Shown here piece by piece: positions 8,211-48,356 of a stretch of 64,000 bases of DNA (its first letter is position 1; each line of letters opens with the position of its first letter). The position numbers were made by a program, and so were the translations under genes. Below the pieces are notes generated by a model. The model was not told the origin of the DNA and did not search any database. It saw nothing but the letters and a program-made list of their open reading frames with translations. Source of the DNA: Escherichia phage cardinal; sequence record PQ567651.1, one strand, 5' to 3'.

Positions 8211-8331
8211 ATAAAAATAAAAATTTTCAAAATATCAGTAAATATCAGATTGTGCTTTTAGATAAACAGCAAGGTCTGTATGCCATTTTCCTAAAAGATT
8301 TTGTCCTTTCCAACAGTCCTTATTTTCCACA

Positions 8332-8787
8332 TCACGATCCCACATTCCCATTTTTGATACCATAAATAGAATCATAAGGGCTTGCCTCTACGAACTCCTT
8401 ATCTGCGTAAGCGATAAGTTTATTTTTGAGATCTTCATTTTGTGTGTATTTAAGATACAAACCACGTTTGACAATCTTCTCCCGTAAAGAAGTCCAGGTA
8501 TCTTCATCATAATCTTTAACTAATCTGCCTAGACGTTTATAATATGCTTGTTCTTTTTCTCCTGTATATCTTAGATCTCCGGTTAAAATAGAAGATGCAA
8601 TATTGTAATCATAAAACAAACATGCTTTTCTCCACATCATATATTGTTCCACACAAGTAAATTCGACAGAACTTGTGATAGAATTATTATACTTGGGAGC
8701 TAAAGGTTCAATAAAAGATGATAGATACCAGTTGCTAAATTCATCTTTTGCCGAGAAAAAGAACACATACTTGTCAGTAATCCGCAT
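8332..8787 (-). CDS. NADAR (YbiA/DUF1768-like) domain protein, putative ADP-ribose N-glycosidase
   Basis: 151 aa; FFFS..DEFSN, CVEQYMMWRKA, YKRLGR, WTSLREKIVKRGLYLKYTQNEDLKNKL and SPYDSIYGIKNG align with the conserved blocks of E. coli YbiA. Confidence 0.65.
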   Translation of the reverse strand: MRITDKYVFFFSAKDEFSNWYLSSFIEPLAPKYNNSITSSVEFTCVEQYMMWRKACLFYDYNIASSILTGDLRYTGEKEQAYYKRLGRLVKDYDEDTWTSLREKIVKRGLYLKYTQNEDLKNKLIAYADKEFVEASPYDSIYGIKNGNVGS

Positions 8788-10185
8788 TTACACCTCCTTA
8801 TTGTATACTAATTTGCCACCATATTGTGTAACAATTTTTTGAAGATTTTCCAAATCAGAAACACTTACTGTTTCTGTATGACCATCTTTCAACTCTCTTG
8901 CCGTTAAAATACCAGTTTTTAATTTTTTCTTTATAGCTCTTTCAGCAGCCTTACATTGTTTCACTGTGCTAAAATCATATAAACAAATACGCTCCATAGG
9001 AAACATATTACAGCTATTTTGACGTTTTAATCGACTATCACTATTTTTAGCTATACCAAACTTAAGAGCAACTATAATATTATCATCCTTAACAATATTA
9101 ATATATAACTGCTGCTGACTATGACCAGCACACATAGGACAACCTCGACCGTGGCTTAATAAGGCATTAGCCCTCCCTGTCTGTTCCCCATGCACAAGAC
9201 AAAGATATTTAAACTTACCGTGACTTCTAGACGGTTTACCGATCCAACCTACCCAGACATACCCTTTCCCTTCTACTTCCTTTTTTACCCTGTAGGTAAT
9301 CTGATTTTCTGTATAGTGATAACTAGTTGCACAGCGGCAAGGGATACTTCCTTGTTTTAGGGGCCACCCTTTAGAGTAAAATTTACCATCGCAAACACCT
9401 GCTTGAACATATTCATCATGGGAGCAAACAGGACACTCAACCATCCATACTGCATCACGCTTGTTACGTTTCCCTGTATTGGTGAAGATAGTGCCTTCCT
9501 TAAATTTCCCTGTAGAAAAGAAATCTGCAATATGTTGATCGTCGGACATTGTTAGTGCCTTCCTTGTATTCTCATACCTACATAAAGGACAACCATAACC
9601 ACGTTTAAAATTGTTAATACTTGTAGTATCCCATTTATAACCACAGTGACACAACAAATCAAGTTTTGTTTTATGTCCTTTCCATTTTCCAACGTACCCT
9701 AACACCTGATACCCCTTCTTCTGTGCTATCTCTTCCAAGATCGGTAATTCTGTTTCCCATGCTAACGGTTTATTACTTGCACATGCCGGACAACCACGTC
9801 CATTCCTAAAATCAATAATGTTTGTGGTGTTCCACTCTCCATGTTTAGGGCAAATTATGCGAATTTTTGTTCGCACACCTCGCCACTCCTCGGCAAGACC
9901 TATAAAAGTAAACCCTCTTTCTTTAGCAATATCAACAAGGGAGATACATTCCTTTTCTTCTGTTACTTTTCTATGACCATTGCAATCGGAGCAACATTTA
10001 CCGCCTTTAGTTTTAAATACATTGATTATGGTACTTTCCCACTCTCCATGATCAGAGCAAGATAGCTTAAGCCTAGTCCTGCTACCTTTCCATTCACCAA
10101 CATAACCCAAGATTTGAATATTGTGATTTTTAGCAAGGGGTATTAATTCTTCTTTATATTGTTCCCATGATTTTAGTGCTACCAT
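8788..10185 (-). CDS. protein with five tandem zinc-ribbon-like repeats and a C-terminal T5orf172/GIY-YIG-like domain
   Basis: Five ~50-aa repeats of the form GY.G.WKG..T...L.C..HGEW......F..G.GC..C; C-terminus IVALKFGIAKNSDSRLKRQ...AERAIKKKL resembles the T5orf172 family. Confidence 0.5.
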   Translation of the reverse strand: MVALKSWEQYKEELIPLAKNHNIQILGYVGEWKGSRTRLKLSCSDHGEWESTIINVFKTKGGKCCSDCNGHRKVTEEKECISLVDIAKERGFTFIGLAEEWRGVRTKIRIICPKHGEWNTTNIIDFRNGRGCPACASNKPLAWETELPILEEIAQKKGYQVLGYVGKWKGHKTKLDLLCHCGYKWDTTSINNFKRGYGCPLCRYENTRKALTMSDDQHIADFFSTGKFKEGTIFTNTGKRNKRDAVWMVECPVCSHDEYVQAGVCDGKFYSKGWPLKQGSIPCRCATSYHYTENQITYRVKKEVEGKGYVWVGWIGKPSRSHGKFKYLCLVHGEQTGRANALLSHGRGCPMCAGHSQQQLYINIVKDDNIIVALKFGIAKNSDSRLKRQNSCNMFPMERICLYDFSTVKQCKAAERAIKKKLKTGILTARELKDGHTETVSVSDLENLQKIVTQYGGKLVYNKEV

Positions 10186-18722: not shown

Positions 18723-21497
18723 ATGGCTAAGAAAGAGTTGAGCTTCACTCCGACAGAAGAGCAAACAGCTATTAAGGAGGCTTTTCCAGATCATCGCTTT
18801 TTAACTATCCAAGCTAAATCTGGATCAGGTAAAACGTCAACACTTTATTTGCTGGCTAACAGTACAGAAGATCGCATTCTTTACTTAGCTTTCAATAAAA
18901 GCATGGCAGAAGAAGCACGACGTAAGATGCCACCAAATGTAGAATGCCGTACATTGCATTCTATTTGCTATCAATTCCTGGATCATCGTTTACGTGCAAA
19001 ACTGTCACGACCAGAAGGACAGTATGTTAACGTTGCAGGTACAGGTAGCGAGATAGCAAAGAAATTTAAGATTAATAATCTTATTGATAAACGAGGGAAA
19101 ACACTTTTAACTCGTGCTATGATTGGTTTAATGATCAAGCAAACCGTAGGTAAGTTTGAATTTTCGGATGATCCTTTTATCAGCCGTAAACATTTTCCTA
19201 GTGTACATCTTGCAGATATTAAAAGAAAAGGTATTAACGAACACAAACTAATTACAGAAGTAGTTAAGTATGCAAAACAATTGTGGCGAGAGCGCATCGA
19301 TCCTAACACAGATACTTTGATGACGCATGACACCTATGTAAAATTGTTTGAATTGTCTGGTGCTGATCTTGGTTATGACATTATTTTTGGGGATGAATTC
19401 CAGGATGTTAACCCTGCATTCTTGTCTATTCTGCGAAATGCTAAATCTGCAAAACAAATTGTGGTAGTTGGCGATGAATTCCAATGTGTGTCGGAAAACA
19501 CGGTACTTAACACCGAGAATGGTCAGGTTACAATGAAAGACCTGCAAATCGGTGATAAGGTAGAGTCTTATTCTAATGGTAAAGTTACATTTAGAAAAGT
19601 AACAAATAAGACTTTATCTACACGTACAAAAGGTAGGAATATTATTACTGCTACAGGTAAAACTTTAGATATGACACATAACCATCGTATTTGGGCTTCA
19701 TCCTATGTTCTGAAAGATGACCAGATGGTGGTATACCTAATGTGGAGGAAAGATTTAGGTTTCCGAGTAGGGATCACTAACAAATTCGATGATAAAGAAG
19801 GTTTTTCTAAACTGGGGCAACGTACACGTTCTGAAAAAGCACAGAAATTATGGGTGTTGGACATTGTTGAAAATCGCGAAGCTGCTATGGAAAAAGAAAT
19901 GGCATACAGTTTACAATATGGCATTCCTACTTGTGTATTTGAAGCAAGTTCACGCGGCATTAATCAAGAAAGGATCAATAACATCTTTGAACAATTCGGA
20001 CAAAATGGTTTTAAACTTTTAGAGGATAAAGATTATCATTTTGCTTATCCACACTGGCACAGCATCAATTGTGCAGTAGATGAAAGAAAAATGCTAACAG
20101 TGACTTTGCGAGCACAAAGTTGTAAAGGAACACAAGTTAGTTTTGAGTGGACAGAAAGTGAAATGCCGATCTATTCTTCACTGATTAAAGCAGGTGTAAG
20201 CGTAAGTGCTGCTAAATTGGAAGGTCGTTACCGTGTACGTAAATATTTCAATTCTTATCGTGAAGCATTGAGTTTTGCACAAAAGATCCTTGAAATAGTT
20301 CCGTTTGCATCTTTAAAAGAATGCATGTCCTCTGTGAACAGTGCCAAATATAACTTAATTCCGGCAGCGGGTTTGTTTAAAGGCATGTCTGTGTTGGTAA
20401 AAGATGGTGATACTGTAACGGCAGAAGAGATTGTGGATATTGTAGATAGTGAGGGTATCTATTATGATATTGAAGTAGAGGATACTGCTAACTTCTTTGG
20501 CAATGAAATTCTTAGCCACAACTGCATTTATCAATTTAGAGGTAGCTCTAATATGATGATTGAAACAGCTAAGTATGGGGCAGAACTTCCATTAACTGCT
20601 TGCTTCCGTTTTGGCCCCAAAGTGGCAAACATTGCCAATATGATTTTAAGCGATAAAGAACCTTTGCGTCATCCTTTGGTTGGTAAAGGCTTTGATACTG
20701 TAGTAGGTAGCTACAAATCAGATGTTGTAGACTATACAAAACCTTACACTATCATCTTTCGCAAGAATTTAACCTTGCTTATGGAGGCAATGGATCGTAT
20801 TGCAGATGGGGAAGAAATTATTATTAACGTAGATACCAGGGATTTTATCTCTATGGTAGATAGTGTTAATGCTCTTCGGAGAGGAGATATTGAGAAAGTA
20901 AAACATGAAACTGTATTACCTTACGCAGACTGGGATGAATTTGTTGAGTGTGCAGAGGCTGATCCAGATGCTAAACGCTTGTTAAACATCGTAGTTTCTG
21001 GTAAGGCGAACACCATAGCACATACACTTAGAACGCACAGAAATTCTCCTACAGCAAAAGTCACACTTACTACAGCACACAAGTCTAAAGGTTTGGAGTG
21101 GGATCAGGTTATTGTTGCTAATGATTTTCCTTCCAACTATGATAAAAAGACTGGTGAATGGGTAGGACTAGAAGAGGCAGAGCGAAACCTACTGTATGTA
21201 GCGCATACCCGTTGTGTTAAATGCTTACAATGGAACACAACCGTACAGGAGATTATAGATATCAATCGTGTTGCAACAGAGAAAGTACCAACAAGCACCA
21301 CTTTACCGATCAATGGTATTAAACTTGGTGTATTTGGCGCTGGCACATCTCGAAAAACTGTAGAAAAATTTGTTGCAGATTCTTTTGATGGTAACTATAA
21401 TCATGCACAAGCATATGAGAGTTGGTTAGAGGAAGGTGAAGGTGATTTTTTAGGTGAAATAAATCTTTTACCAGACATAAATAAACTGGTAAACTAA
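18723..21497 (+). CDS. UvrD/PcrA-like SF1 DNA helicase containing an intein
   Basis: Walker A AKSGSGKTST, motif II FGDEFQDVN, motif III split as VVGDEFQ | intein | CIYQFRGSS; precursor 924 aa. Confidence 0.8.
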   Translation: MAKKELSFTPTEEQTAIKEAFPDHRFLTIQAKSGSGKTSTLYLLANSTEDRILYLAFNKSMAEEARRKMPPNVECRTLHSICYQFLDHRLRAKLSRPEGQYVNVAGTGSEIAKKFKINNLIDKRGKTLLTRAMIGLMIKQTVGKFEFSDDPFISRKHFPSVHLADIKRKGINEHKLITEVVKYAKQLWRERIDPNTDTLMTHDTYVKLFELSGADLGYDIIFGDEFQDVNPAFLSILRNAKSAKQIVVVGDEFQCVSENTVLNTENGQVTMKDLQIGDKVESYSNGKVTFRKVTNKTLSTRTKGRNIITATGKTLDMTHNHRIWASSYVLKDDQMVVYLMWRKDLGFRVGITNKFDDKEGFSKLGQRTRSEKAQKLWVLDIVENREAAMEKEMAYSLQYGIPTCVFEASSRGINQERINNIFEQFGQNGFKLLEDKDYHFAYPHWHSINCAVDERKMLTVTLRAQSCKGTQVSFEWTESEMPIYSSLIKAGVSVSAAKLEGRYRVRKYFNSYREALSFAQKILEIVPFASLKECMSSVNSAKYNLIPAAGLFKGMSVLVKDGDTVTAEEIVDIVDSEGIYYDIEVEDTANFFGNEILSHNCIYQFRGSSNMMIETAKYGAELPLTACFRFGPKVANIANMILSDKEPLRHPLVGKGFDTVVGSYKSDVVDYTKPYTIIFRKNLTLLMEAMDRIADGEEIIINVDTRDFISMVDSVNALRRGDIEKVKHETVLPYADWDEFVECAEADPDAKRLLNIVVSGKANTIAHTLRTHRNSPTAKVTLTTAHKSKGLEWDQVIVANDFPSNYDKKTGEWVGLEEAERNLLYVAHTRCVKCLQWNTTVQEIIDINRVATEKVPTSTTLPINGIKLGVFGAGTSRKTVEKFVADSFDGNYNHAQAYESWLEEGEGDFLGEINLLPDINKLVN
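19485..20522 (+). mobile_element. intein (346 aa) inserted in helicase motif III
   Basis: Begins with Cys (CVSENTVLNTENGQV...), ends ...EILSHN followed by +1 Cys; extein junction restores GDEFQ-CIYQFRG. Confidence 0.7.
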
Positions 21498-23832: not shown

Positions 23833-24690
23833 ATGACCCAAAAACTATATGAGGATGTAATCGGATTCCTCGAACAAACATCCGAAGAATTTACTCGTGA
23901 AAATGCAAACAAACCTGCAATGATTGTTAATACTCACCGAGATTTACTAGCAGGTATCCTAAGCAAGCACATGGCAATGACCCATATTTTACCTGAAGAT
24001 TTAGCAGAATGGCATAAAAGTGGGTATGGTCACATCCACGATTTAGATTATTTACTCTCACCTTTAACTAATTGTTGCCTGGTAAATTACCAAGATATGC
24101 TTGAGAACGGTTTCCGTATTGGTAATGCACATATTGAAAAACCAAAATCTATCGGTGTAGCGACTACTGTCCTAACTCAAATTATTCAAGCAGTAGCTTC
24201 TAGCCAATATGGTGGACAAACTTGTGCACATGTTGATACTGGGCTTAGTCAATACGTTAAAGCAAGTTTTAATAAAATATATGCCGATGTTGGCGATTAT
24301 GATATTGCTATGCGTATGGTAGATAAACAGGTCTATGATGCAATGCAAACTTTAATCTACCAGGTGAACACTCTAATGAGTGTAAATGGTCAGTCACCTT
24401 TTATAACAATTAGTTTAGGTTTGGATACCTCTGCTTTTGGTAGAATGATCACTAAAAACTACCTAATGGTGCACAAACAAGGATTGGGAAAAGATAGGGT
24501 AACTCCTGTGTTTCCTAAAGTTATCTTCTTCTTGGAAGATGGTGTTAACATGAAAGCTGGCGATCCAAACTATGATTTGAAGCAACTGGCAATGGAGTGT
24601 TGTGCTGAACGCATTTATCCTGATTTTATCTCTGTACCTTTAAACAAAGAAGTTACAGGATCTTCAGATGGTCGCGTCACAAGCATGGGT
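23833..24690 (+). CDS. nrdD: anaerobic ribonucleoside-triphosphate reductase, exon 1
   Basis: Aligns with E. coli NrdD from NENANK...RDLLAGI through GDPNYDLKQLAMEC to ...VTGS...MG; exon ends on U after the Gly codon. Confidence 0.85.
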
Positions 24691-24970
24691 AAACTATAAC
24701 TGCTCATGTAAAATCTGCCTAAACGGGGGAACTCTCAACGAGACAATCCCGTGCTAAACGTAACAGAACTCCCAACACAGAAGAAGGGGGGTACTATTAC
24801 GAAATGCCTAACGACTAGCTGTGATGAATGTAGCAGCGTAGGGTGTAAGCCTATGACACCCCAAATGGTAGACATGCTTTAAGCATGAAGATATAGTCTG
24901 ATCTGCATGGTGACATGCAGCAGCACGTAATGGTGCGGGAGTGGCCTTGCGAGCCACTTTGAACATAATG
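24691..24970 (+). mobile_element. group I self-splicing intron (ORF-less) in nrdD
   Basis: 280 nt separating two NrdD halves that sit in different frames; core element ctaaacgggggaactctc...gacaatcccgtgctaaa closely resembles the phage T4 td/nrd intron core; 5' exon ends in U and intron ends in G. Confidence 0.75.
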
Positions 24971-25912
24971 TGTAGAAGTTTCTTGTCATACTATGCAACA
25001 GAGCAAGGTGAAAAATATGATGGTCGTTTCAACTTAGGCGTAGTTTCTTTAAACTTACCTATCATTGCAGCAGAGTCCCGTGAAAAGGGCATCTTATTTA
25101 CTGAACTGTTGGAACAACATATGGAGATGGCGTATAAGGCACATATGCTACGTGTTAACCGTATTAGACATACCAAAGCATCTCAAAACCCTACATTGTT
25201 TATGGAAGGGGCTTTAGCTCGACTAGAAGCTAATGAAGAGATTGGTAAACTATTTGAAGGTGGTTATGCCTCTATTAGTATCGGTTATGTAGGTTTAGCA
25301 GAAGCTATGGAGATTTTATACCCAAATAACACCAATCCAAAAGCAATGGGTAAAAACATCCTTCAATATATGAAGGATATCTGTTGCACATTTAAAGAAC
25401 GTTCTGGTTTAGCTTTTAGTTTGTATGGAACACCAGCAGAATCCTTGTGCTATAAATTTGCCAAAGCGTTAAATGATCGCTATCCTGGCTCTATTGATCG
25501 TGACTATTTGACAAACTCTTTCCATCAACCTGTATGGATGCACACTACCCCGTTCCAAAAGTGGGATTATGAGGAAGGTTTTGCACAAATTAGTAATGGT
25601 GGGAACATAGGTTATGTAGAAACACCAAACCTTAAAAATAACTTGCAAGCACTGGAAACTCTTGTAGATTATGCCTACAATAAAATTCCTTATTTTGGCG
25701 TGAACCAACCTGTAGATCAGTGTTTCAAATGTGGTTTTCATGGTGAATTTAAGGCAACAGCTAAAGGCTTCGAGTGTCCAAGTTGTGGAAATCATGAAGA
25801 AGAATCCATATCTGTGATCAGAAGAGTGTCAGGATACCTTTCTGCTCCTAACTCTCGCCCTTATAATAAAGGTAAGATGCAAGAGGTACTAGAAAGGGAG
25901 AAACACTTTTGA
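24971..25912 (+). CDS. nrdD: anaerobic ribonucleoside-triphosphate reductase, exon 2
   Basis: Begins CRSFLS (E. coli MGCRSFLG), contains NLGVVSLNLP, the C..C...C..C zinc ribbon and glycyl-radical motif RRVSGYL. Confidence 0.85.
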   Translation, partial: CRSFLSYYATEQGEKYDGRFNLGVVSLNLPIIAAESREKGILFTELLEQHMEMAYKAHMLRVNRIRHTKASQNPTLFMEGALARLEANEEIGKLFEGGYASISIGYVGLAEAMEILYPNNTNPKAMGKNILQYMKDICCTFKERSGLAFSLYGTPAESLCYKFAKALNDRYPGSIDRDYLTNSFHQPVWMHTTPFQKWDYEEGFAQISNGGNIGYVETPNLKNNLQALETLVDYAYNKIPYFGVNQPVDQCFKCGFHGEFKATAKGFECPSCGNHEEESISVIRRVSGYLSAPNSRPYNKGKMQEVLEREKHF

Positions 25913-45041: not shown

Positions 45042-48000
45042 ATGGGAGCTTTTACTTTCGACATTGAAAGTAACAACTTGCTTAATGACGAAAGTGTAGA
45101 TTACTTGGCAAGTCCATATCGTTTAAAAGATAGTTTTGCAATGCACTGTATTGTGTGCGAAAGTCATGAGACTGGAGAGATTATTGCTTTCCATGATGGT
45201 GATAAATATCTTTTCGATGGTCGTCCGTATATTGAGACTGACGGAAAGTATGAATACCGACTGGAGGAATATGAGCATTTAGAATATACCCATTTCCCTC
45301 TTAAAGATTTTCCTGATTTTGTAAATGGAACAGGTAAATTTAAAGGTAATTCAAACTATAAAATTACCAAAGTAGTTGGACATAACATCATTAACTTTGA
45401 CTTACTGGCAATTAAATTATTTTTTAAACTCAACTACAGTATTAAGTACAATACTTGGGGTAATAGTAACATTGAAATTTGTGATACTATGATCTTAAGT
45501 AAGACACTAAACCCTGATCGCTTCGGTGGTCATAGTCTGGCAGAGTTATCTAAGAAAGCTGGAGGGGATGTTAAAATTGATTTTAGAAAAAACATCCCTG
45601 AAACTGAAAGATTTAAAACATTTGCAGCAGATATGCTGTATTACTGTATTTACGATAACAAAGCTAACACCGCAGTGTTCCGTTATTTGATGGAAGAGTG
45701 GGGTGATTATAATAAGTGGTCTGAACCATTTAACTTAGAACAACGTGTAGCTGATATTATTACACGTCAAGAGCACCGTGGCTTTGCTTTCAATATGAAG
45801 CAAGCAGAAGATAATATTCGTGATCTGGATGCTCGAATGGAAGCATGTCGTTTAGAGGCAGAACCTGTGCTACCTCCTAAACCTGCTACTAAAGGTTATT
45901 TGAAATCATTCATTCCACCTAAACTACAGTTTAAAAAGAATGGTGAACCTTCAAGTAACATGATAAAGTTTGCAGAGAAACATTCTGGTGAACTTGTACA
46001 AAAAGAAGATGGTTGGTGGTTATTTGCATTAGGTAAAGAGTTTAAACTGCCTATTCCAGCAGAAGAACCTATTTGTGATCCTACAGTACCTGCTACTTTA
46101 GACGACACTACACATATTAAAAATTGGTTAGTTGGTTTAGGTTGGAGTCCATCTGAATATAAAGATAAAGATATCACTCTTAAATCTGGCACTAAGATTA
46201 AGAAAGATGAAGCACAAATGGAGAAAGCTATTCGTGACTATGTTGATCAAACGTTAGCATCTAACTTCTGCCAGGACAGATGTGATCATCTGGAGTGCAC
46301 ACCAGAAACTTTGGAATGGAAACTAAGAGATCGTATTGCTAAAGCTAAAGGTCGTGGTGTTAAAGTGCTTACTAACCCTTCCTTTACAAAAGGGCAAGAG
46401 AAAGATATTTGTCCTAATTTGGAAGCACTAGGTGAAAAGTTTCCTTATGCTACGCAGATTGTGCAGTATCTTACGTATAAACACCGTAGGAACTCTATTC
46501 TAGGGGGTGGTGCTGATTGGGAAGAAGATGAAGAGGATTACGATAAAGGTTATCTGGCAGCAGTAAGGGCTGATGGTCGTATACCAACCCCTGCTGCAAC
46601 GTGTGATGCAGCTACGTCTCGTATGAAACATAGGTTAGTAGCAAATATCCCACGTGTAACATCTCTGTACGGATATGAAATGCGTAATTTATTTGGTGTA
46701 GAAGTTCCAAAATACTTCCAAATTGGTTATGACTTTGATTCTCTTGAGGCAAAAATAGAATCACACTACTGTGTACCTATGGATGCACAAGCACTAACCC
46801 GTAAAGGTTGGGTTGGTTATCACGATCTACAAGAAGGGGATGAAATCTTAGGATATAACCCAGAAACAGGACTTAAAGAATGGACTAAAGTAAAAGGTAA
46901 GGTCTTCTATAAAAATAGTAAGACGTTTGAGATTAAAGGGAAATCACACACTTACCGTGCAACAGCAGATCACCGTTGGTATGTTAATACCCGTAGTAAA
47001 GGGAATACTTATGTGCCTAAAGTCAGAACAACTGCCGAGCTTTGCACAGGAGATAATATTATTTGTAATGCTCCATTTAACATGGAACAAGATCAGGTAA
47101 ATAGTTTAACTTCTGTTCAACAAGGTAAATGGGATGTTCCGTGGGTAGAGCGTGTAGTTAATATGTCTCATGCCGAGCGTGTGGCTTTCTTGGAAGGTTT
47201 TTTGATTGCGGATGGTTACTGGCATGAACATAAACAAAAACCTGTTTGGCGTTGGGCGCAGAACCCAGGTGAACTTTTTGAAGCAGCTTTAACTGCCTCG
47301 TACCTGGTGCATGGAGGCAATATCTCTGTAGCTTTCAATACAAAAGAGCAGAAAGTAAAAGTGGCAACATTGGCTAACCGCTCTCACATTCCTGTTCAAA
47401 GTTTGACTATTGAAGAGTGGGGTGTAGAGGATGTTTGGTGTCCACAAACAGAACTTGGTACGTGGGTCATGCGTCAGAAAGACTGCATTACCATCACAGG
47501 AAACTGTTGGCGGTACGAGCAGGAACCACACGAATATTGTAATGCTCTATTATTGGAAAAACCTAATGATGTTCATACAATGATGGCTCGACGTATTTCT
47601 GACACTATTGGTCGTAAGTTTGAACGAAGCCCTGCTAAATCTGTTAAGTATGGTATTACTTATGGTGCTCAAGCTGCAAAAGTAGCAAAAACTATAGGTA
47701 GTGATATGTATACAGGACAGCTTGTATACGATGCTTTCTGGGAAGCTGCAAAACCTCTTGCGCTTCTTAAAGAACGTCTGCATGATTTTTGGGTTAAAAC
47801 AGGTAAGAAATACATTCTTGGTATTGATGGTAGGAAAGTACCTACACGATCTGCACACGCAATACTTAACTCTCTGTTCCAGAGTGGTGGTGTTATTTGT
47901 GCAAAAAGAGCAATGGTTATCTACGACGATCTTATCGAAGAAGAAGGATTAGCTGTTGACTTTTTTGTTGATGACTGGAAAAATAAGTCATTCGTTCAAC

Positions 48001-48356
48001 AAATGATTGCATATCACGATGAAGCACAGCTTGAAGTAACTCGTGATCTGGTGCATTTTAAATGGTTCTCTAAAGAATCTTTAGGTTGGACTCAAGTTGA
48101 TGATCCAGAGGAACAAAAGAAAATTGATAAAGAATGTTTGGATAAAGTTAATGCCTGGAAAGAAGAGGAAGAGAAGCGTACTGGCAAGATTTGGGCTAAC
48201 GTACATGAATCTCCAAAAGGTGGTTGGTTTACAGCCTACAGTCGTGCTGGAGAATTAGCATCTATTGCTGTTAATAAAGCTGGTGAGTATTACAATCTTA
48301 ATGTACCTCTCACTGCTGGATACGATGTTGGTAGTTCATGGTCAACTTGTCACTGA
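45042..48356 (+). CDS. family A (Pol I/T7-like) DNA polymerase containing an intein
   Basis: N-terminal 3'-5' exonuclease motif FDIESNNL; motif A region GYDFDSLEAKIESHY | intein | CWRYEQ...; downstream AKSVKYGITYGAQAAKVAKTIG aligns with T7 Pol AKTFIYGFLYGAGDEKIG. Confidence 0.85.
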   Translation: MGAFTFDIESNNLLNDESVDYLASPYRLKDSFAMHCIVCESHETGEIIAFHDGDKYLFDGRPYIETDGKYEYRLEEYEHLEYTHFPLKDFPDFVNGTGKFKGNSNYKITKVVGHNIINFDLLAIKLFFKLNYSIKYNTWGNSNIEICDTMILSKTLNPDRFGGHSLAELSKKAGGDVKIDFRKNIPETERFKTFAADMLYYCIYDNKANTAVFRYLMEEWGDYNKWSEPFNLEQRVADIITRQEHRGFAFNMKQAEDNIRDLDARMEACRLEAEPVLPPKPATKGYLKSFIPPKLQFKKNGEPSSNMIKFAEKHSGELVQKEDGWWLFALGKEFKLPIPAEEPICDPTVPATLDDTTHIKNWLVGLGWSPSEYKDKDITLKSGTKIKKDEAQMEKAIRDYVDQTLASNFCQDRCDHLECTPETLEWKLRDRIAKAKGRGVKVLTNPSFTKGQEKDICPNLEALGEKFPYATQIVQYLTYKHRRNSILGGGADWEEDEEDYDKGYLAAVRADGRIPTPAATCDAATSRMKHRLVANIPRVTSLYGYEMRNLFGVEVPKYFQIGYDFDSLEAKIESHYCVPMDAQALTRKGWVGYHDLQEGDEILGYNPETGLKEWTKVKGKVFYKNSKTFEIKGKSHTYRATADHRWYVNTRSKGNTYVPKVRTTAELCTGDNIICNAPFNMEQDQVNSLTSVQQGKWDVPWVERVVNMSHAERVAFLEGFLIADGYWHEHKQKPVWRWAQNPGELFEAALTASYLVHGGNISVAFNTKEQKVKVATLANRSHIPVQSLTIEEWGVEDVWCPQTELGTWVMRQKDCITITGNCWRYEQEPHEYCNALLLEKPNDVHTMMARRISDTIGRKFERSPAKSVKYGITYGAQAAKVAKTIGSDMYTGQLVYDAFWEAAKPLALLKERLHDFWVKTGKKYILGIDGRKVPTRSAHAILNSLFQSGGVICAKRAMVIYDDLIEEEGLAVDFFVDDWKNKSFVQQMIAYHDEAQLEVTRDLVHFKWFSKESLGWTQVDDPEEQKKIDKECLDKVNAWKEEEEKRTGKIWANVHESPKGGWFTAYSRAGELASIAVNKAGEYYNLNVPLTAGYDVGSSWSTCH
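46770..47504 (+). mobile_element. intein (245 aa) with LAGLIDADG-like endonuclease motif in DNA polymerase
   Basis: Starts CVPMDAQALT, ends ...ITITGN with +1 Cys; internal VAFLEGFLIADGYW resembles a LAGLIDADG motif. Confidence 0.65.

Follow-up and report, generated by a model that had tools for sequence, protein, structure and literature searches.

Closest described systems

The element considered here interrupts motif III of a UvrD/Rep-type helicase gene in a 64,000-nucleotide stretch of DNA from Escherichia phage cardinal (PQ567651.1; hereafter the window), and its closest described counterparts are helicase inteins of other phages. Three GenBank records already describe an 'intein-containing UvrD / Rep family helicase precursor', namely those of PaulScherrer (MZ501100), JohannJBalmer (MZ501084) and vB_EcoM_ZYD (PQ110661), and the first two, which belong to the BASEL collection, also carry a mat_peptide feature named 'intein'. 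The inteins of the BASEL collection were identified by comparative genomics (PMC8594841). All three records contain the same element in the same gene and at the same site (97.5-98.5% nucleotide identity over the gene), with no biological difference from that of the window. As an annotated GenBank feature the intein is not new. Most other records of the genus, including those of phi92 and VEcB, label the gene only as 'DNA helicase' or 'hypothetical protein', and a 2024 paper states that coliphages had no reported inteins (PMC11162368).

More distant counterparts are the UvrD-type inteins of SPO1 (gp34.33) and CampHawk, which are annotated as inteins in GenBank and in PMC3868849. They occupy the same point of motif III (GDDDQ↓C...THN↓SMYSFRGA, arrows marking splice junctions), are likewise of class 1 and have in common with the cardinal element the first part of its middle domain (subdomain 1; AVYLM..FRVG..R..W.L..E), with a tblastn identity of ~31%. 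Unlike the coliphage intein, the SPO1-type intein is shorter (275 amino acids by the SPO1 GenBank annotation), is without subdomain 2, has Ser at +1 and belongs to phages of Gram-positive hosts, and the similarity is low. The LAGLIDADG inteins (PI-SceI, PI-PfuI, PI-PkoII and Tli VMA) resemble the present element in architecture, with a Hint domain that holds an endonuclease-type insert after block B and with homing presumed. The endonuclease types listed as associated with inteins are LAGLIDADG, HNH, Vsr-like and EndoVII-like (PMC2677866; bioRxiv 10.1101/2025.01.02.630785), and GIY-YIG nucleases are not known inside inteins (PMC2677866).

Set beside these systems, the insert at 19485-20522 (plus strand) of the window is very likely, with a probability of about 0.9, a class 1 intein that encloses a domain of the homing-endonuclease type and splits motif III of the helicase in a phi92-like coliphage (Justusliebigvirus). 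It is a precise in-frame insertion, has a canonical Hint fold with the full class 1 residue set and bears the footprints of homing. No description was found of its middle domain, which is neither LAGLIDADG nor HNH, or of the size of the family, its strong site specificity for UvrD helicases and its free-standing derivatives.

Position and identity of the intein

The interrupted gene (18723-21497, plus strand, stop codon included) is a single uninterrupted open reading frame (ORF) for a precursor of 924 amino acids, with a GenBank-style start at the ATG at 18723 and a stop codon at 21495-21497. Its DNA shares 97.5-99.0% identity with the genes of phi92-like E. coli myoviruses such as VEcB, phi92, muut and PaulScherrer (Justusliebigvirus, Stephanstirmvirinae). 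The precursor matches the DNA helicase family phrog_1967 of PHROGs (E = 2.6e-162) as well as UvrD-helicase (E = 9.4e-12), UvrD_C (E = 1e-10) and AAA_19 of Pfam. The host protein possesses the features of the UvrD/Rep/PcrA helicases of superfamily 1A: a Walker A motif, a motif II of the DExQD type, a motif III of the form GDxxQSIYxFRGA and the UvrD_C domain.

The initial annotation had described a 346-residue insertion at these positions that begins with Cys, ends with Asn followed by Cys and lies between GDEFQ and (C)IYQFRG, and translation proves both coordinates and description to be exact. The 346 codons contain no stop (CVSENTVLNTENGQ...NFFGNEILSHN, with CVSENTVLNT as first residues) and are flanked by ...VVVGDEFQ and CIYQFRGSSN..., so that the split falls within motif III (GDEFQ↓CIYQFRG). 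The N-extein (18723-19484, plus strand, 254 amino acids) carries Walker A (AKSGSGKT) and motif II (GDEFQD), ends at 19484 with the first half of motif III (VVVGDEFQ), and can be aligned over its full length with residues 1-254 of 578-residue helicases that are without the insert. The C-extein (20523-21494, plus strand, 324 amino acids) starts with the Cys+1 codon (20523-20525), supplies the second half of motif III (CIYQFRG) and likewise aligns with the empty helicases. By this standard convention the intein has 1038 nucleotides; the mat_peptide of MZ501100 (L001 2302-3342) has 1041 because it includes the +1 Cys codon, which conventionally belongs to the C-extein and is replaced by a Ser codon in the empty allele. 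The pentapeptide GDEFQ occurs both in motif II (19389-19403) and in the first half of motif III (19470-19484) with near-identical codons (GATGAATTCCA), and these two stretches form a short direct repeat, 81 nucleotides apart, immediately 5' of the insertion point. The only other ORFs that overlap the intein are two short ones (85 amino acids on the minus strand and 77 on the plus strand), and nothing in this set of ORFs suggests an out-of-frame or antisense endonuclease gene.

Empty alleles of the gene are found among close relatives. A tblastn search with the helicase spliced in silico retrieved uninterrupted helicases from three phages of the same genus, EmilieFrey, BME3 and vB_Eco_PATM (98.3-98.6% identity over 1734 nucleotides); the empty same-genus protein has 578 amino acids and its motif III reads GDEYQ↓SIYQFRG, the arrow here marking the insertion point. 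Motif III is also uninterrupted in all homologs sampled with tblastn from Phapecoctavirus and from Vibrio, Pseudomonas and Acinetobacter phages. Residues 255-600 of the precursor are exactly missing from the helicases of EmilieFrey (MZ501063) and BME3 (PP239276), which are 98% identical and 578 amino acids long, and also from that of tuntematon (81% identical, 530 amino acids). In the protein alignment with EmilieFrey and BME3 the gap extends exactly from Cys1 to Asn346, and the +1 residue stands opposite the motif III Ser of the empty alleles.

Both ends of the insert carry Hint signatures. The N-terminal Hint region (residues 1-73; 19485-19703, plus strand) includes Cys1 (19485-19487) and block B, T64-H-N-H67 (19674-19685), and as a single sequence matches Pfam Hint over residues 4-73 with 29.9 bits (cut-off 29.7). 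The C-terminal Hint region (residues 288-346; 20346-20522, plus strand) contains block F (D328), block G and His345-Asn346 (20517-20522), and TIGR01443 intein_Cterm is matched with 20-23 bits (cut-off 15.6). The single sequence scores 33.7 bits against Pfam Intein_splicing (match to residues 8-346), which is below the cut-off of 35.8; this model is matched by 27 of 27 aligned family members. A profile of these 27 sequences matches solved inteins (gp41-1, E = 1.1e-15; VMA, 3e-9; DnaX, 8e-8; DnaB, 1.5e-7) at both ends, namely at positions 5-73 (gp41-1, VMA) and 274-339 (DnaX, DnaB, CDC21). The Hint, TIGR01443 and profile matches go far beyond chance. AlphaFold with three sequences only gave an unusable model (predicted local distance difference test, pLDDT, of 42), and the 27-sequence alignment was used instead; the resulting AlphaFold2 (AF2) model has a pLDDT of 91.8 and a predicted template modelling score of 0.87. 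In both the profile comparison and the model, the N- and C-terminal regions together form a Hint fold.

All residues of a class 1 intein are present, that is, Cys1, block B T64-x-x-H67, block F Asp328, His345-Asn346 and Cys+1 (C-terminus ...YDIEVEDTANFFGNEILSH345N346↓C), and C1, H67, H345 and N346 are 100% conserved across 100 relatives. Thus, the identity of the insert as an intein is supported by the empty alleles, the profile signatures and the full set of catalytic residues. Both of the checks that had been proposed for it, comparison with intein-free homologs and a profile search for Hint blocks, agree with this identity: the insert is not a native subdomain, since same-genus and distant phages alike have an uninterrupted motif III, and the Hint blocks are found by profile and by structure.

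Evidence for mobility

The flanks of the intein differ from the rest of the gene in their divergence. A comparison of two intein-containing alleles (window and PaulScherrer) with two empty ones (EmilieFrey and BME3) revealed 26 fixed differences over 1737 extein nucleotides, and 24 of the 26 lie within 27 nucleotides upstream or 51 nucleotides downstream of the insertion point (78 nucleotides; binomial p about 1e-30). Nine of these fall in the upstream tract (19458-19484, plus strand) and 15 in the downstream tract (20523-20573, plus strand). Many of the junction differences are synonymous; at the protein level they comprise F to Y at -2, C to S at +1 and four further residue changes between +9 and +17. 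Such a footprint is what co-conversion of the flanks during homing from a diverged donor would be expected to leave.

Klebsiella phage KP2025 possesses the same 346-residue intein at the same site, accompanied by the C...SS flank signature. Between the window and KP2025 the inteins share 90.2% amino acid and 89.0% nucleotide identity, as against 83.2% and 74.9% for the exteins, and this closer relationship of the intein than of its host gene suggests transfer between diverged phage lineages. Among helicases that are at least 95% identical, about 36 of approximately 55 carry the intein, and every copy in these close relatives is an intact ORF. On the strength of the junction tract, the identity contrast with KP2025 and the sporadic distribution, the intein is apparently mobile.

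The middle domain and its distribution

The region between the two Hint segments comprises two subdomains. Subdomain 1 (about residues 74-200; 19704-20084, plus strand), which is delimited by the AF2 model and by conservation, is the putative nuclease core; the model shows a beta-hairpin, short helix, beta strand, helix and helix (beta81-88, beta92-98, alpha111-116, beta121-128, alpha131-145 and alpha161-181). This subdomain is kept in the shorter inteins of SPO1 and of the Streptococcus phage phiD12. Subdomain 2 (about residues 201-287; 20085-20345, plus strand) is an alpha/beta module recognized from AF2 secondary structure, conservation and the comparison with SPO1; its conserved residues include R250 and R252, and we infer that it binds DNA. 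Across 100 members the near-invariant residues of the middle domain are Y84, M86, G92, R94, G96, R113, E117, W123, A134, E138, P148 and P189, together with R250 and R252.

The extent of the family emerged from an exhaustive HMMER search; a word-indexed homolog search had yielded only two intein relatives. With a profile restricted to the middle domain, 1,249 cluster representatives were found at E <= 1e-3, 525 at E <= 1e-10 and 97 at E <= 1e-30, nearly all of them within proteins of 800-2,500 amino acids. The domain is also present in a 485-kb uncultured phage. Among the top 150 representatives, 103 are inserted at motif III (GDxxQ↓C...HN↓(S/C)IYxFRGA; +1 is Ser in 76, Cys in 26 and Thr in 1), and 19 occupy three other sites of the same helicase family: motif II (DE↓CQDLN, 11), the position after DEAQDLNK (5) and AHN↓(S/T)KQIPM (3). 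The remainder consists of short proteins without a terminal HN, which are free-standing or truncated (9), longer proteins without a terminal HN (3) and proteins whose site was not assigned (16). By this distribution, the large, unannotated middle-domain family is tied almost exclusively to inteins of UvrD-type helicases.

Some metagenomic helicases of 1,800-2,500 amino acids (P0003, P0004, P0007, P0009 and others) each harbor two or three of these inteins, inserted at separate sites that include motif II, the position after DEAQDLNK, motif III and AHN↓(S/T)KQIPM. The helicase looks like a hotspot in which one intein lineage switches from site to site. The closest intein relative outside the coliphages lies at the same site (GDDQQ↓CVSVDT...ILSHN↓SIYGWRG) on a high-GC metagenomic contig (L005 4997-8107); the ORF for helicase and intein is split there over at least four frames, as a result of either an assembly error or decay of the gene. 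A different host gene is seen in phiD12, whose 'DNA methylase' (L008 1361-3472) includes an intein that belongs to the same family and is not annotated (WQHEP↓CQPAGT...ADGIVTHN↓CLYGWKQ). In related Streptococcus suis phages the same methylase gene is annotated solely as a methyltransferase.

Two established endonuclease types were considered for the middle domain and rejected. A LAGLIDADG (DOD) endonuclease is defined by one or two LAGLIDADG helices in an alpha-beta-beta-alpha-beta-beta-alpha fold, features that the middle domain does not show. An HNH or His-Me finger nuclease was set aside because there is no HNH Pfam match and no His of the middle domain is conserved in 85% or more of 100 members. 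None of the 27 aligned members matches any Pfam family in this region, even at E <= 10.

Free-standing relatives without splicing residues

Stand-alone proteins of 265-366 amino acids also belong to the family (P0002, P0044, P0050, P0058, P0065, P0066, P0068 and P0140). Most of them retain the Hint-like ends together with the middle domain, P0002 ending before blocks F and G. All are without the splicing residues: they start with Met in place of Cys1, have a degenerate block B and do not end in His-Asn. In all three informative contigs the stand-alone gene adjoins a UvrD helicase gene that is complete and whose motif III is unbroken, and it lies 12 nucleotides downstream of that gene (L081 3340-4392), 13 nucleotides downstream (L083 4001-5014) or 66 nucleotides upstream (L006 6001-6798). 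Motif III of these neighboring helicases reads GDxxQ-A-IYxF, with a non-nucleophilic Ala at +1. In L006 the helicase gene is bordered on its other side by a gene for a canonical GIY-YIG homing endonuclease (8306-9112, minus strand). The persistence of splicing-dead copies as intact genes beside helicase genes argues that the non-splicing part has a selected activity of its own, which would most plausibly be DNA cleavage.

The yeast HO endonuclease is a free-standing derivative of a VMA1-type intein. The stand-alone phage proteins are comparable, in that P0002, P0044, P0058 and others keep Hint-like ends and the middle domain, with Cys1, block B and the terminal Asn gone, much as HO has lost splicing. 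They differ from HO in being phage genes that adjoin their presumptive target, a UvrD helicase gene with Ala at +1, and in having a non-LAGLIDADG middle domain.

Alternative explanations

Several points weigh against an intein with an active, embedded homing endonuclease. No paper characterizing this element was found in the literature, and both splicing and DNA cleavage remain predicted. The GC content of the intein (0.371) equals that of the host gene (0.377 and 0.386 for the exteins) and offers no independent hint of recent import. The middle domain (residues ~74-287) has no match in Pfam, NCBIfam or PDB sequences in single-sequence searches, is matched weakly in PHROGs by a family of unknown function (E = 0.0015) and carries no recognized nuclease signature. 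One alternative is that the 346-residue segment is a lineage-specific native insertion, an accessory subdomain of the helicase that is not excised; superfamily 1 helicases do have variable insertions (the 1B and 2B subdomains), and the single-sequence Intein_splicing score falls slightly short of its cut-off. This is extremely improbable, as the segment falls between Q and S/C of the invariant motif III, is precisely lacking from 98%-identical helicases and forms a complete Hint fold with every splicing residue in place, and the same cassette is found in an unrelated host protein, the DNA methylase of S. suis phages. A native subdomain is ruled out by the empty alleles, the family profile and the Hint structure. 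Another alternative is an intein that splices and no longer moves. The middle domain would then be a decayed or non-catalytic remnant, for example one that binds DNA or serves as a structural linker, and presence and absence would reflect vertical descent with occasional precise loss or ordinary recombination. The shared base composition and the lack of any known nuclease motif or fold in the middle domain are in keeping with such a history, which is nevertheless unlikely: near-invariant polar residues persist over 100 diverse members in a family of 1,249 clusters, which is unexpected for a decayed endonuclease; between the window and KP2025 the intein DNA exceeds the host gene in similarity by 14 percentage points; the divergent junction tract of 78 nucleotides is sharply bounded, as co-conversion predicts; and the splicing-dead copies are kept intact beside helicase genes.

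If the middle domain of a mobile intein is a nuclease, it may be a true but extremely divergent member of the GIY-YIG class, and thus an in-frame GIY-YIG-type homing endonuclease within an intein, rather than a wholly new fold. The comparison was suggested by the beta-beta-alpha-beta-alpha order in the AF2 model, which is the order of the GIY-YIG core elements and a topology that the two may share, and by a Y / R-x-G / R / E pattern. The catalytic-domain sequence of I-TevI, checked against PDB 1MK0 (97 of 97 residues, 213.6 bits), led, by way of 70 viral loci, to an alignment of 43 I-TevI relatives, which served as the GIY-YIG profile in hhalign (local mode); as other seeds, the L006 homing endonuclease retrieved nothing and I-TevI alone nine near-identical matches. 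Subdomain 1 obtains P = 8e-4 and a score of 23.05 over the segment of beta3 and the catalytic-Glu helix, where LWVLDIVE-NREAAMEKEMAYS stands opposite CSILEEIPYEKDLIIERENFWI of I-TevI and E138 falls on the catalytic E75; column-shuffled profiles score 10.4 +/- 2.1 (maximum 18.4), so that 0 of 150 reach the observed value, and control regions of the intein give P = 0.07-0.55. Greedy extension pairs Y84 with the Tyr of GIY and V95-G96 with the V-G of YIG, with posterior confidence near zero. On the other side, the hhalign probability is 17-25% (24.5% for subdomain 1), with ~20 confident columns in one block, and an invariant Arg occupies the position of the second Tyr; both results also count against an embedded endonuclease. 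When the shuffles preserve blocks, 16 of 150 reach the observed score, which places the signal in a single block. Pfam GIY-YIG matches no member among the 27, even at E <= 10, and R113 and R27 of I-TevI do not fall opposite each other. By standard criteria the similarity of the intein to GIY-YIG homing endonucleases is not significant. The match weakly suggests that the middle-domain core could possibly be a very divergent GIY-YIG-like module (Y84, R94/G96, R113 and E138), and GIY-YIG ancestry stays somewhat short of an even chance. A broader reading, itself tentative and slightly less likely than not, is that the middle domain represents a previously undescribed family of intein-borne homing endonucleases. 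This family would be neither LAGLIDADG nor HNH, might be a far-diverged GIY-YIG with Arg for the second Tyr, would be specialized on UvrD-type helicase genes and would have repeatedly given rise to splicing-dead, free-standing, HO-like genes beside intein-free helicases with Ala at +1.

Proposed mechanism and significance

The 924-residue precursor would be translated in a form that is probably inactive as a helicase, because its ATPase motif III is split. An N-S acyl shift at Cys1 would be followed by transfer of the N-extein to Cys+1 through trans-thioesterification; Asn346 would then cyclize with the help of His345, releasing the 346-residue intein, and an S-N shift would leave the mature helicase of 578 amino acids with the junction GDEFQ-CIYQFRG (GDEFQCIYQFRG). 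The released intein, with the ~210-residue middle domain as its presumed nuclease, is presumed to cleave intein-free copies of the helicase gene in co-infecting phages, close to the codons of motif III, the predicted target in the EmilieFrey/BME3 allele lying around GTGGTGGGTGACGAATATCAG↓AGCATTTACCAGTTCCGTGGA. Recombinational repair from the filled allele would copy the intein together with ~27 nucleotides of upstream and ~51 nucleotides of downstream flank.

For annotation, the mature helicase should be taken as 578 rather than 924 amino acids, a matter that concerns the type phage phi92 and most records of the genus. The BASEL collection contains both filled (PaulScherrer and JohannJBalmer) and empty (EmilieFrey) phages, all of which grow on E. 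coli K-12 and have ~98% identical genes, and it thereby offers a ready system for studying intein homing and its fitness effects in co-infection. If the middle domain is indeed an active nuclease, the family would constitute a large, unexplored group of homing endonucleases and a source of new site-specific enzymes, and would document how an intein can become a free-standing endonuclease gene.

Other elements of the window and related records

The initial annotation had counted three self-splicing elements in the window, the other two being a polymerase intein and an nrdD intron. The intron is upheld by a database match, and the polymerase element is annotated as an intein and has intein-like termini, with weak profile support. 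It is an insert of 245 amino acids (46770-47504, plus strand) in a family A DNA polymerase (PolA ORF 45042-48356; HY↓CVPMDAQ...TADH...FLEGFLIADGYW...ITGN↓CWRY), annotated as an intein in MZ501100. The features of the insert include Cys1, a TxxH block and a LAGLIDADG-like motif; its last residue is Asn, with Cys next to it in the polymerase, and Gly stands in place of the penultimate His. The profile matches are Intein_splicing at E = 0.028 and LAGLIDADG_3 at E = 0.15.

Four records labelled as Campylobacter jejuni phages, 'Campylobacter phage' A150 (MG065639), A145 (MG065645), C3 (MG065656) and A110a (MG065689), are 98.5% identical to the window gene over 2.8 kb and have phi92-like genomes of ~146 kb; their attribution to a Campylobacter host is probably wrong, or the samples were contaminated. 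The intron of the window is a group I intron (24645-24920, plus strand) with a full-length match to the Rfam model RF00028 (72.3 bits, E = 2e-16), and it lies between the ORFs for the N-terminal (23833-24699) and C-terminal (24941-25912) halves of the anaerobic ribonucleotide reductase NrdD.

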